Origin: an uncultured bacterium | Lineage (GTDB): Bacteria; Chlamydiota; Chlamydiia; Chlamydiales; FEN-1388 | Direction: 5' to 3' | Length of the DNA stretch: 64,000 bases | Assembly (NCBI GenBank): GCA_964577935.1 | Contig: CAZOAJ010000003.1 | Span: forward strand, 24,618-88,617 | Shown: positions 53,810 to 57,151 of the stretch, piece after piece | How the letters are laid out: the number at the start of each line of letters is the position of its first letter | Numbering within the stretch: position 1 is the stretch's first letter | Notes under the pieces: model-generated | Seen by the model: only the letters and a program-made list of their open reading frames with translations | Databases searched by the model: none | Told to the model about the DNA's origin: nothing | Program-made: the position numbers and the translations under genes

Positions 53810-54335
53810 TGCTTATGTATTGGTTAGATGTATGTTTTCGTACTATATGCAAGGTGTATTAAGAGCACTGCATATATGTTTAACACAAGAGTAATCGTAG
53901 ATAGCATGTCCAGCTATTTAACGCATAATCAAAGATGCATAAATGGTATAAACATCAAATTTGTCTCTTCTTTGTAGGTAGTTACAATTTTAAGACAAAG
54001 CAAAGTTAATTCCACTAAGGGGATTGAGCGCGCCACGCTAGCACTCATGGATTTATACACTATAGGGAGTCTCATGGCTAATGAGATAAACAAATCAGGA
54101 GCGATCAACGAAGCAATGCACAGCTTCGTATGAAAAAGAAGTCCCTACATTTGACGATTGACTAAAAACCGTCCAAACATGTCTGCGGAAAGATAATTAC
54201 TTTTTCAAAAATAGCATTTTAGACAGTTTTTTCGAAAAAGAACTGGTAGATTCTGAGCAATGATTGATCCTATTGTGGAGGGCTTGTCAAGCGTAGCCTA
54301 AATTGGCTACTGTTGATGAATTTTACAAAGTCGAG

Positions 54336-54364
54336 TTGACAAGAGTCTTTGTGCCCTCTATACA
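54336..54364 (+). promoter_or_regulatory. candidate sigma70-type promoter TTGACA-N17-TATACA
   Basis: A perfect -35 sits at 54336-54341 with 17 nt spacing to the -10 TATACA at 54359-54364, 25 nt upstream of the toxin-like ORF. Confidence 0.45.
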
Positions 54365-54388
54365 TGTCCGCTGCCTAAGTCTTAAACG

Positions 54389-56182
54389 ATGTATGAACCG
54401 GATTTTGATATGATACAGCACTTTATACGTTTTACACAGAATATTCTCTTGCTATTCTTAGCATTTTTTTTCTTCTGTGTAAGTGAGATGAGTGCTGCTT
54501 ATAGCTGCCCCGAACATACGCGCTTTATAGATAATCTAAGAGGCGAGGTGAATCGCACACCATTTTTTCGAACCATAGTCAGCCCTGGTGTAGAGGATCC
54601 AGTTCATTGGGCTCACATAAGAGAAATGAGCAGCAAACTGCTTCCTTGGCAAATAAAATGGCATAAAGATCTTAGTGTAGACAAGCTGAGATATTTTTCA
54701 CAGTTCAGAGAATATATACACGTCTCAAGGAAATGGTCGAGAGGACTTTTCGAAATTGCTCGATACGGGGAGATCTGTTACTTAGCGCGCAATCCATATT
54801 CAGAGTTTGCTAAAGAAAGGCTTGATCGACGCTTAAAGGAATATCTGAATGGAAGTCATAACCTTGATACGTTGCAAGAAACAATCACATCGACATTTGC
54901 TGACGTATATGCTTGCGGATGCCAAGGGAATAGGGACTTATACACTATATATGACCATGGGTTAGTAGAGCTAGCTCGAGGAAATCGAGATATAGCATTT
55001 GATCTTGCTGATGAGTTAGTGCAATATGTTTCGAGGCGCCCTGTAGAATCCAGAAACCTGAAAGCTGATCATTATCTTAATTTAGGAATTACCTTTTCGG
55101 AGGCATTGAATTATTCAAAAGCCATTGAATTTTTGTCTAAATCGATAGAACTAGATCCAAAGAATCGACAGGCCCACATCGCAAGAGCTATAGCCTATTT
55201 TGAGACAAATCAAATCGAAGAGGCGCTACAAGATTACACATTAGTAAAACTTGAGCCAGTTAATGCGTTACCGCAGGAATATGATCTTAGAGAATTTGGG
55301 GTAGGATTTCTTATCGGGGTCAATCGCGGGTTTTCAAGGCAGCTAGAAGATTTACCTGGCTCTATTTTGGGTTCGCTTCAAGGATCAGGACAGTTGTGGG
55401 GAGTCAACTTATGGGCTACCAATCCTAGCGAAGAAGTTGATAAATTCACGAATGAAATGGAAGAATGCTTAAATACTGTTATCAAAGATGCTGAGCATCT
55501 ATTTTCATGTCTTGCCACTCACAATATCTCAAAAATTGCATTAGAATATCTAAGTAACAACGACATCTCGGAAATTGCAGATGATATTTCTCAAGTTATG
55601 GACAAAGTGGCTCCAGAATTTTCTGATCTCGTAAAAAATTGGCAGACTTACGATCCCTATATGAGAGGAGAAAAAGTTGGGCATTATTTGGGAAAGTATG
55701 GCCTAGACGTTTGTATAGGCTATGGAAGCACGAAAGGGATGGAGGTGTGGCGTTCACTTCGTCAAGCTAATGCGATGTGCACACTTGAGGTAATGGCTGG
55801 CTCTCAGGCAAATAAAGTAATCATTGAAGATTTGGCCGCAATTCATGCTCAGAAGCGGAGAGGATTTTTTGAAAATGCTTTACTACACAAAGATAAGCAG
55901 GGAAAACACATTTTAGGGCATAGGAACTATGAAGAAGGGAAAAGCATTTTTACCCATCCAAATCCAGAAATGTTGTTAAAACAACATGCAGGCAAGGGGT
56001 ATCCTTGGGGGGCCGAATGGACTGAGCTAGGCGGATACGCTGAATTTGTTGATTTTGGGGAAGAAATTGGATTTTATGTAGATATGAAGACAAAAACACA
56101 ATTCCCCACGACACGGGGAAAAATACATTACGATAAACACGGAGGAGCCCATATAGTTCCGACTTCACCGAAAAAAAGCTAA
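54389..56182 (+). CDS. secreted TPR-containing protein with C-terminal polymorphic-toxin-like (Ntox50-like) domain
   Basis: The hydrophobic N-terminus is NILLLFLAFFFFCVSEMSAAYS. TPR-like repeats are present (HYLNLGITFSEALNYSKAIEFLSKSIELDPKNRQAHIARAIAYFETNQIEEALQDY). The last ~97 aa are KQGKHILGHRNYEEGKSIF...LLKQHAGKG...EFVDFGEEIGFYVD...TTRGKIHYDKHGGAHIVP. That matches the motif string I remember for polymorphic toxin type 50 domains. Confidence 0.6.
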   Translation: MYEPDFDMIQHFIRFTQNILLLFLAFFFFCVSEMSAAYSCPEHTRFIDNLRGEVNRTPFFRTIVSPGVEDPVHWAHIREMSSKLLPWQIKWHKDLSVDKLRYFSQFREYIHVSRKWSRGLFEIARYGEICYLARNPYSEFAKERLDRRLKEYLNGSHNLDTLQETITSTFADVYACGCQGNRDLYTIYDHGLVELARGNRDIAFDLADELVQYVSRRPVESRNLKADHYLNLGITFSEALNYSKAIEFLSKSIELDPKNRQAHIARAIAYFETNQIEEALQDYTLVKLEPVNALPQEYDLREFGVGFLIGVNRGFSRQLEDLPGSILGSLQGSGQLWGVNLWATNPSEEVDKFTNEMEECLNTVIKDAEHLFSCLATHNISKIALEYLSNNDISEIADDISQVMDKVAPEFSDLVKNWQTYDPYMRGEKVGHYLGKYGLDVCIGYGSTKGMEVWRSLRQANAMCTLEVMAGSQANKVIIEDLAAIHAQKRRGFFENALLHKDKQGKHILGHRNYEEGKSIFTHPNPEMLLKQHAGKGYPWGAEWTELGGYAEFVDFGEEIGFYVDMKTKTQFPTTRGKIHYDKHGGAHIVPTSPKKS

Positions 56183-56282
56183 GGTATTATAAATGGCTTC
56201 CTCAGAAGGAAGGGGGTAATATTTTTATCAGCCTAAACTCCATTGAAAAGAATCCACCCAAAATCGACTACTAGGTGTGTAA

Positions 56283-56600
56283 ATGAATGAAGAGCAGATA
56301 GAAAGAAGAATAAAAATTTTATTATCAGTTCAGCGGGCCCTTTTGGGTGCGATCGTTCCTAATCTAAGACGTATATTTCTTGACTGGAATGAAAATGAGA
56401 TTCGGTTCTATTTCGTTTTTGACGGTGACTTTTCTGAAGAGGACCAAGAAGAAATGGAGTGTGTTGCTTTCGAGGTGAGCTGTGATTTCGATGATGATGA
56501 AAAGATTGTAACGAATTATCTTAGAATTCCTGCTCCCGAGCAAGTTCATAACATGGGGCAAGCGTGCGTGTTTTCTCGAAAGGAAAAATATGATGATTGA
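56283..56600 (+). CDS. small acidic protein, candidate cognate immunity protein
   Basis: 105 aa on the same strand, 100 nt downstream of the toxin-like ORF. It is acidic (DGDFSEEDQEEMECVAFEVSCDFDDDEK). I recognise no family, so the assignment is by context only. Confidence 0.4.
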   Translation: MNEEQIERRIKILLSVQRALLGAIVPNLRRIFLDWNENEIRFYFVFDGDFSEEDQEEMECVAFEVSCDFDDDEKIVTNYLRIPAPEQVHNMGQACVFSRKEKYDD

Positions 56601-57151
56601 AAGAGACAATACTCATTATGACGACTATTTCGAAAAACAAGGATATCTCACAAAGGAAGGATGTCGCACACAGGGTTATTTACGTAATACTTAAGTCATA
56701 AATACTCTTCACAAATTGAAAATCAGTGAGGACCCAGTCATTTGCAATTGCTGAAGCACGAAGCCAATCGTGAGCTTTCGCTCATCTAAATTCAACGGAG
56801 TTTGCGCTTTCTTCGTCTATTGATTGCTTTCACTCGAATATTAGTGCATTATCTACAGGTATAGATAAAGCGATAGCCATTGAAAGCTTGATTCAAAGTT
56901 GGAATTTGCCAAGAAAAACTTGCGGATAGTACTATCAGAATCGTTGTCTGTAGTATCTATAGGCGATTTTAAGACAGTGCTGTCCATGAAAGAAATGCAG
57001 AATTTCCTTCTTGAACTCGTTTGTGTGCGTCAAAAAAAAGCTCTACCAAAAAATCTAAGGATAAGGAGAGGCTAACAGAAAAATTGAAAAGAAGGTCGAT
57101 ATGATCGATACCCTTTTCTATTTTCTTCTTTGTTGGCTATGATACGTGGTC

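Follow-up and report, generated by a model that had tools for sequence, protein, structure and literature searches.

The 64,000-nucleotide stretch analyzed here (the window; positions 24,618 to 88,617 of contig CAZOAJ010000003.1, assembly GCA_964577935.1, from an uncultured bacterium of the Chlamydiales) carries a two-gene cassette. Its first gene encodes a protein of 597 amino acids (aa) with an N-terminal hydrophobic segment, tetratricopeptide repeats (TPR), a helical module of unnamed family and an Ntox50 toxin domain at the C-terminus, and the second an acidic 105 aa protein of the MafI2 immunity type. The cassette is inserted into a gene junction that is otherwise conserved in related chlamydiae. 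We consider it probable that the pair constitutes a functional, Sec-dependent polymorphic ribonuclease (RNase) toxin with its immunity protein, directed mainly against other bacteria.

The Ntox50 tip and its immunity gene

The motif that the initial annotation had assigned to the type 50 polymorphic toxins is confirmed by a profile search: residues 499–591 match PF15542 over the full length of the model (positions 1–92 of 92) and well above the cut-off (E=6.5e-23; 81.7 bits vs 22.2). The open reading frame (ORF) of the toxin (54389–56182, forward strand) is confirmed, including the sequence quoted for its last 97 aa. Compared with the sequences of the PDB, these 97 aa find MafB2-CT (8HHJ_B, E=1.2e-9) and YxiD-CTD (9V8I_B, E=5.6e-7), and the latter is also the top Foldseek match of the AlphaFold 2 (AF2) model (TM score 0.75, root-mean-square deviation 2.2 Å, 39% identity), in which the Ntox50 domain reaches a confidence score (pLDDT) of ~95. 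According to this model the domain has a BECR / RNase A-like alpha+beta fold.

For both homologs the active site has been described. Toxicity of MafB2 depends on His335, His402 and His409 (PMC9970974), while YxiD is a metal-dependent tRNase with an active site made up of His447, His521 and His528, and with Lys446 and Lys524 binding the substrate (PMC12700104). Both histidine triads align with H507, H580 and H588 of the window protein, and the residues of the catalytic motif are present (K506-H507, H580, K583 and H588-I-V-P591). Among 81 Ntox50 tips of the family described below, H507 occurs in all 81, K506 in 79, H588 in 76, H580 in 69 and K583 in 61. As the catalytic residues are all present and conserved, the domain, which is basic (isoelectric point 8.8), is predicted to be catalytically competent. 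By analogy to its characterized homologs it should be a ribonuclease, with cleavage of tRNA as the most likely activity.

The acidic ORF that had been noted 100 nt downstream on the same strand is likewise present (isoelectric point 4.40, net charge −12), and both ORFs of the cassette are intact. A precomputed hit assigns the 105 aa protein to PF26541 (MafI2), with an unmarked entry standing for E≤1e-5; our local Pfam scan left PF26541 unmatched even on proteins with precomputed PF26541 hits, and the model is probably absent there. Searched with a profile of nine immunity-domain sequences, the PDB yields 8HHJ_A, the immunity protein of MafB2, as the top hit (E=8.2e-5), and with a wider profile of 16 sequences the same chain is the sole PDB hit (E=0.007). 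MafI2 neutralizes MafB2 by covering its RNA-binding surface via complementary charge (PMC9970974). The acidic ORF and the basic toxin domain of the window are also complementary in charge, which is consistent with occlusion of this kind, and we predict that the toxin is neutralized by it.

Family loci were gathered from public assemblies and searched with hidden Markov models (HMMs) of the module, of the immunity domain and of three tip types. MafI2-like domains are found downstream of the toxin in all 12 independent Ntox50-tipped loci, while the 8 loci that carry other tips have none (Fisher p=7.9e-6; p=4.1e-5 if the three loci used for training the HMM are left out). One to four of these domains are present per Ntox50 locus, on the same strand and starting within ~110 nt. 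The initial annotation had assumed a cognate immunity gene and proposed to look for both ORFs as neighbors elsewhere; the MafI2 type of the ORF and its recurrence downstream of the Ntox50 tip support this assumption.

A constant region with alternative tips

The only strongly hydrophobic segment of the toxin protein is located at its N-terminus (residues ~12–40; 12-residue Kyte-Doolittle mean 3.17 at residues 19–30), in agreement with the signal-like sequence claimed there, and AF2 predicts a helix at residues 6–38. Comparable N-terminal segments occur in the relatives P0002, P0004 and P0006 and in 43 of 64 full-length family members. The model of the complete protein, built from 64 family sequences, has a mean pLDDT of 78.6. 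The suspected TPR-like repeats are real, with four Pfam TPR families above their cut-offs (TPR_1 with E=2.1e-10 in two stretches, the best at residues 226–259; TPR_2; TPR_12; TPR_19); TPR matches are also returned by Foldseek, and residues R266–T273 are invariant in family alignment A1.

Residues ~287–498, between the repeats and the tip, are predicted to be all-helical. We found no Pfam hit for this module in any of 36 diverse members, no NCBIfam hit and no specific fold match in the PDB by Foldseek. The initial annotation had refrained from matching the N-terminal part to a described system, and this caution was justified, as no described family matches. APD1 and APD2 were considered as candidates for the module and rejected for their different position and lineage. 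When 1.84 billion cluster representatives were screened with a profile of the non-TPR shared part (window protein residues ~287–503), at least 675 clusters matched with E≤1e-3, and 193 clusters matched with E≤1e-30; the module typically ends 75–125 residues (median 97) before the C-terminus. The word-indexed search gave only two close homologs of the full architecture, together with two more distant proteins that share the middle part of the toxin and have unrelated C-termini; with the 36-sequence module profile it gave two proteins only. In the databases the module proteins are named merely ‘TPR repeat protein’ or ‘hypothetical’.

Only two family members carry an organism label, MBM3191989.1 (Chlamydiota) and P0112 (MFX0209605.1, Candidatus Hodarchaeota archaeon). 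The latter has a distinct C-terminal tip and is encoded on a contig of 3.6 kb, so its label is possibly a binning error. The chlamydial ties of the family are the window, by synteny, and MBM3191989.1 only; comparing the flanks of family members with chlamydial loci was uninformative on their taxonomy.

The 136 tips that we extracted from the top module hits comprise 81 Ntox50 domains, 35 of a type 2 and 14 of a type 3; the remainder are others, including as singletons a colicin/pyocin HNH DNase (above cut-off) and DUF6883. Hence one module is joined to at least five tip types. Type 2 tips are followed by a family of ~200 aa proteins (L087 twice, L101) and type 3 tips by a family of ~120 aa proteins (L096 twice, L097, L099, L100 twice), and no hits across types were obtained when the downstream families were compared. 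Each major tip type is thus accompanied by a downstream gene family of its own. An identification of the type 2 tip as Ntox35 was dismissed, the similarity being sub-threshold only. The type 3 tip (P0006 residues ~610–736; alignment A8) has no Pfam match; a weak profile hit in the PDB (E=7.9e-4) leads to 8OWU_B, a 95-residue chain deposited as ‘Transposase’ that shares with it an R(V/I)xP...AHIP motif and for which a literature search retrieved no paper. Downstream of the type 2 toxin in L087 stand two candidate immunity ORFs of 194 aa each, and a homolog of both (26–27% identity) adjoins the mqn gene of a chlamydia-like metagenome-assembled genome (MAG) labeled Verrucomicrobia (L014:8804–9391, reverse strand). 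This homolog may represent an orphan immunity gene in a neighborhood shared with the window cassette.

With a constant region, alternative tips and putative cognate immunity, the module family has the makings of a polymorphic toxin system in the sense of Zhang et al. (2012). Somewhat more doubtful is our proposal that the TPR motif and the ~210 aa module (residues ~226–498) together form an undescribed pre-toxin or translocation scaffold, which would serve a large, mainly chlamydial family of Sec-dependent polymorphic toxins with at least three cassette types.

Several relatives of the cassette hint at conflict. At loci L001 and L002 the downstream genes encode four tandem immunity domains, each 25–41% identical to the 105 aa ORF; in BLASTP this ORF aligns with every repeat of the L002 array (2e-21 to 5e-7). 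The gene downstream of P0002 (L001:2257–3834) opens with an orphan C-terminal fragment of Ntox50 (model positions 43–95) and continues in frame into four MafI2-like repeats. In L002 (638–2370), as also in L003 and L004, a frameshift splits the toxin gene into ORFs of 201 and 382 aa; these are three assemblies from different samples, and the four-repeat immunity array is intact. Immunity has thus outlasted the toxin there.

Layout and insertion of the cassette

The features of the locus are compiled in the table. On its two sides lie an mqn gene and a coiled-coil gene. In related chlamydial MAGs these two stand next to each other in divergent orientation in 11 of 11 cases, at most 343 bp apart, whereas 3,342 bp separate them here. 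The cassette is absent within 10 kb of the junction in all 11, as expected from the earlier claim of an insertion into a conserved chlamydial backbone. The genome of the window is not contained in the species-representative genome set used for this comparison, and its nearest relatives by Mqn are chlamydial MAGs of at most 72% identity. An independent assembly contains the locus in identical form, and its gene call starts the coiled-coil gene at ATG 57152 (591 aa) rather than at GTG 57146 as in our ORF list.

Features of the toxin–immunity locus (positions in the window)
Feature	Position	Strand	Basis or remark
Upstream ORF-free flank, 579 bp	53810–54388		between divergent mqn gene and toxin gene
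Sigma-70-like promoter motif TTGACA-N17-TATACA	54336–54364	+	consensus match only
Putative signal peptide or signal anchor, residues 1–37	54389–54499	+	only transmembrane-like segment
Poorly conserved helical N-terminal region, residues 38–185	54500–54943	+	little conservation in family alignments; helical by AF2
TPR repeats, residues ~186–286, including motif (E/A)RAIAYFETNQ	54944–55246	+	Pfam, Foldseek
Conserved helical pre-toxin module (unnamed family), residues ~287–498	55247–55882	+	profile search
Ntox50 RNase toxin domain (predicted BECR / RNase A-like fold), residues 499–591	55883–56161	+	PF15542
Toxin–immunity spacer, 100 nt, weak hairpin and T-run	56183–56282	+	terminator-like listing 56196–56217
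MafI2-family immunity gene, 105 aa, acidic, single domain, no signal peptide	56283–56600	+	PF26541
Downstream ORF-free flank, ~550 bp (545 bp)	56601–57151		ends at coiled-coil gene

We also considered a foreign composition of the cassette, but GC content and GC content at third codon positions equal those of the neighboring genes. Meaningful direct or inverted repeats around the cassette were not found, neither flank has an Rfam match, no tRNA lies nearby and a six-frame HMM search of both flanks for remnants of immunity or toxin genes gave negative scores only; repeats, Rfam and tRNA searches accordingly identified no mechanism of insertion. From the matched composition and from flanks without repeats, RNA genes, tRNAs or remnants we conclude that either the insertion is old or its source was a similar genome. 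A tblastn match extending beyond the stop codon, to 56666, had made remnants of an immunity array downstream conceivable, but this idea was discarded in view of the negative HMM scores.

The initial annotation had the pair bracketed by the two longest non-coding stretches of the window. This holds for the upstream flank, which is indeed the longest, but the downstream flank is only the third, behind an ORF-free gap of 562 bp elsewhere (1884–2445). The promoter it had pointed out is present as a motif 24 nt before the ATG, and it is the single match in the window, but its reading as a promoter is weak: at least one match occurs in 6 of 100 shuffled sequences, so that the position of the motif alone is suggestive, and a stricter promoter scan of the window did not include it among the listed promoters. 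A terminator between the two genes was rejected, the hairpin being weak and the fold of the spacer no more stable than that of shuffled sequences (z=+1.25).

Role of the cassette and comparison with known systems

Concerning export, RNase activity, neutralization and the target cell, we infer the following course. The 597 aa protein would be exported via its N-terminal signal. Its Ntox50 tip would then cut RNA or tRNA with the H507, H580, H588 site, as suggested by homology to MafB2-CT and YxiD-CT, and thereby halt translation. The 105 aa protein, staying in the cytoplasm, would form a 1:1 complex with the toxin at its basic, RNA-binding face and block access of the substrate, and this binding would protect the producer and its kin. 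The likeliest role would be competition with other bacteria, presumably related chlamydiae or co-resident endosymbionts sharing the host cell.

Several observations weigh against such an antibacterial toxin. Chlamydiae live in largely clonal inclusions, so that their chances for bacterial competition are uncertain. The toxin N-terminus could be a membrane anchor instead of a signal peptide, we could identify neither a path through the outer membrane of chlamydiae nor one into a target cell, and the collected loci show no conserved partner gene beside the family members. The spacer of 100 nt is unusually long compared with 0–60 nt at other family loci. Orphan tips and poly-immunity arrays are seen in the relatives only, the window cassette having a single immunity domain and no orphan tip. 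At the level of the PDB the similarity to MafI2 is modest and drops with the wider profile, and the AF2 model of the 105 aa ORF, built from a two-sequence alignment only, failed (pLDDT 48.6).

The strongest competing explanation, which we regard as less likely, is an effector directed at the host: the exported RNase would attack host (e.g. amoebal) RNA or tRNA, and the immunity protein would only guard the cytoplasm of the producer against toxin folding prior to export. The chlamydial backbone marks an obligately intracellular lineage, effectors aimed at eukaryotes often contain TPR repeats, YxiD-CT cleaves tRNAs of distant species so that the substrate range could be wider (PMC12700104), and the window has a single immunity domain. 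Moreover, toxins of intracellular bacteria have mostly been read as host-directed (Zhang et al. 2012, PMC3482391). According to the same survey, however, such toxins typically come without immunity genes, yet here immunity accompanies the tip in 12 of 12 loci. Protection of the own cytoplasm also leaves unexplained why relatives keep four diverged tandem immunity domains, orphan tips and immunity genes behind a frameshifted toxin, and the same cassette is carried in Ralstonia by a CdiA-like protein of contact-dependent inhibition.

We think it improbable that the cassette is an inactive relic, i.e. an old insertion that has lost expression or function. The long, featureless flanks, the composition fully matched to the backbone, the frameshifted toxin of a related lineage and the weak promoter evidence would fit such decay, but both ORFs are intact, the catalytic and family-invariant residues are all kept and the locus is identical in an independent assembly. 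Similarly improbable is a non-exported addiction or stress module resembling type II toxin–antitoxin systems, which would stabilize the inserted DNA or regulate growth: the BECR fold is common to RelE-type toxins and the pair stands isolated amid housekeeping genes, but the 597 aa length of the toxin, of which ~500 aa are non-catalytic scaffold, its hydrophobic N-terminal signal, the order of toxin before immunity gene, the swapping of C-terminal tips that is typical of secreted polymorphic toxins and the absence of a DNA-binding antitoxin domain in Pfam and NCBIfam all speak against it.

Toxin tip and immunity gene each add a member to a family already known. Undescribed in the literature that we searched are the scaffold and the existence of a large polymorphic toxin family equipped with immunity in this lineage. 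The 2012 survey (PMC3482391) reported Ntox50 in chlamydiae with no immunity protein and no TPR among the associated features, and took the rarity of immunity genes in intracellular bacteria as a sign of rare competition with conspecifics. Cognate immunity, tandem arrays, orphan tips and immunity outlasting the toxin, in a family of which some members are chlamydial, contradict this picture. Antagonism between endosymbionts thereby becomes directly testable. If our proposal of a mainly chlamydial toxin family on an undescribed scaffold holds, obligate intracellular chlamydiae would routinely fight other bacteria in shared host cells, and they would do so by a delivery route unlike Maf, contact-dependent inhibition, type VI or type VII secretion or MuF. 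The family further supplies a new and abundant constant module with a possible part in export or target-cell entry, offers a practical annotation rule for many proteins labeled only ‘TPR repeat protein’, and flags unannotated MafI2-type immunity ORFs, for instance in Ralstonia.

Among the known systems, Neisseria meningitidis MafB2-CT / MafI2 (PDB 8HHJ; PMC9970974) shares with the window cassette an Ntox50 tip with the conserved histidine triad, an acidic MafI2 (PF26541) immunity protein encoded directly downstream, and an N-terminal signal, which is putative in the window protein, as is its Sec-dependence. Unlike Maf toxins, however, the window protein has no MafB-N domain (DUF1020), no adjacent mafA lipoprotein gene and no maf-type genomic island, and it bears its tip on TPR repeats and an unnamed helical module in a chlamydia instead of a proteobacterium. 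With only TPR families and Ntox50 recognized by Pfam, and upstream only 579 bp of ORF-free DNA followed by mqn, it is not a Maf system. YxiD-CTD / YxxD of Bacillus subtilis 6633 (PDB 9V8I; PMC12700104) has the same Ntox50 fold and is the best structural match. Its tRNase domain is occluded 1:1 by the immunity protein (PMC12700104), but YxiD is an LXG toxin with type VII export, unlike the window toxin, and in sequence and profile comparisons the 105 aa ORF showed no resemblance to YxxD.

Amoebophilus, like the lineage of the window, is an intracellular symbiont, and its APD1/APD2 proteins (Zhang et al. 2012, PMC3482391) combine a signal peptide and a constant N-terminal part with polymorphic effector C-termini. 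In these proteins, however, the APD domains directly follow the lipobox and mostly lack immunity genes, whereas the module of the window protein immediately precedes the toxin domain, and every tip type has its putative cognate immunity. Features of contact-dependent inhibition (TPS domain, FHA repeats, cdiB gene) were found neither in the window protein nor in its neighborhood.

Beyond the family, the tip alone recurs on two further scaffolds. In phages of Clostridioides difficile (phiC2; PMC5576092, PMC3482391) a tip 37.6% identical to that of the window is fused to a head-morphogenesis (MuF) protein, while the window cassette is not surrounded by phage genes. On megaplasmids of Ralstonia solanacearum (CP022482.1) it terminates a CdiA-like ‘hemagglutinin’ with 50% identity to the window tip; the delivery scaffold, encoded by a gene of ~9.8 kb, is unlike the TPR/module protein. 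The stop codon of this gene is overlapped by an unannotated ORF of 99 aa (L133:2772–3068), which the chlamydial immunity profile hits with E=2e-23; its identity to the 105 aa ORF of the window is 34%. As the Ralstonia tip is thus followed by a MafI2-like ORF, tip and immunity move jointly between scaffolds and phyla.

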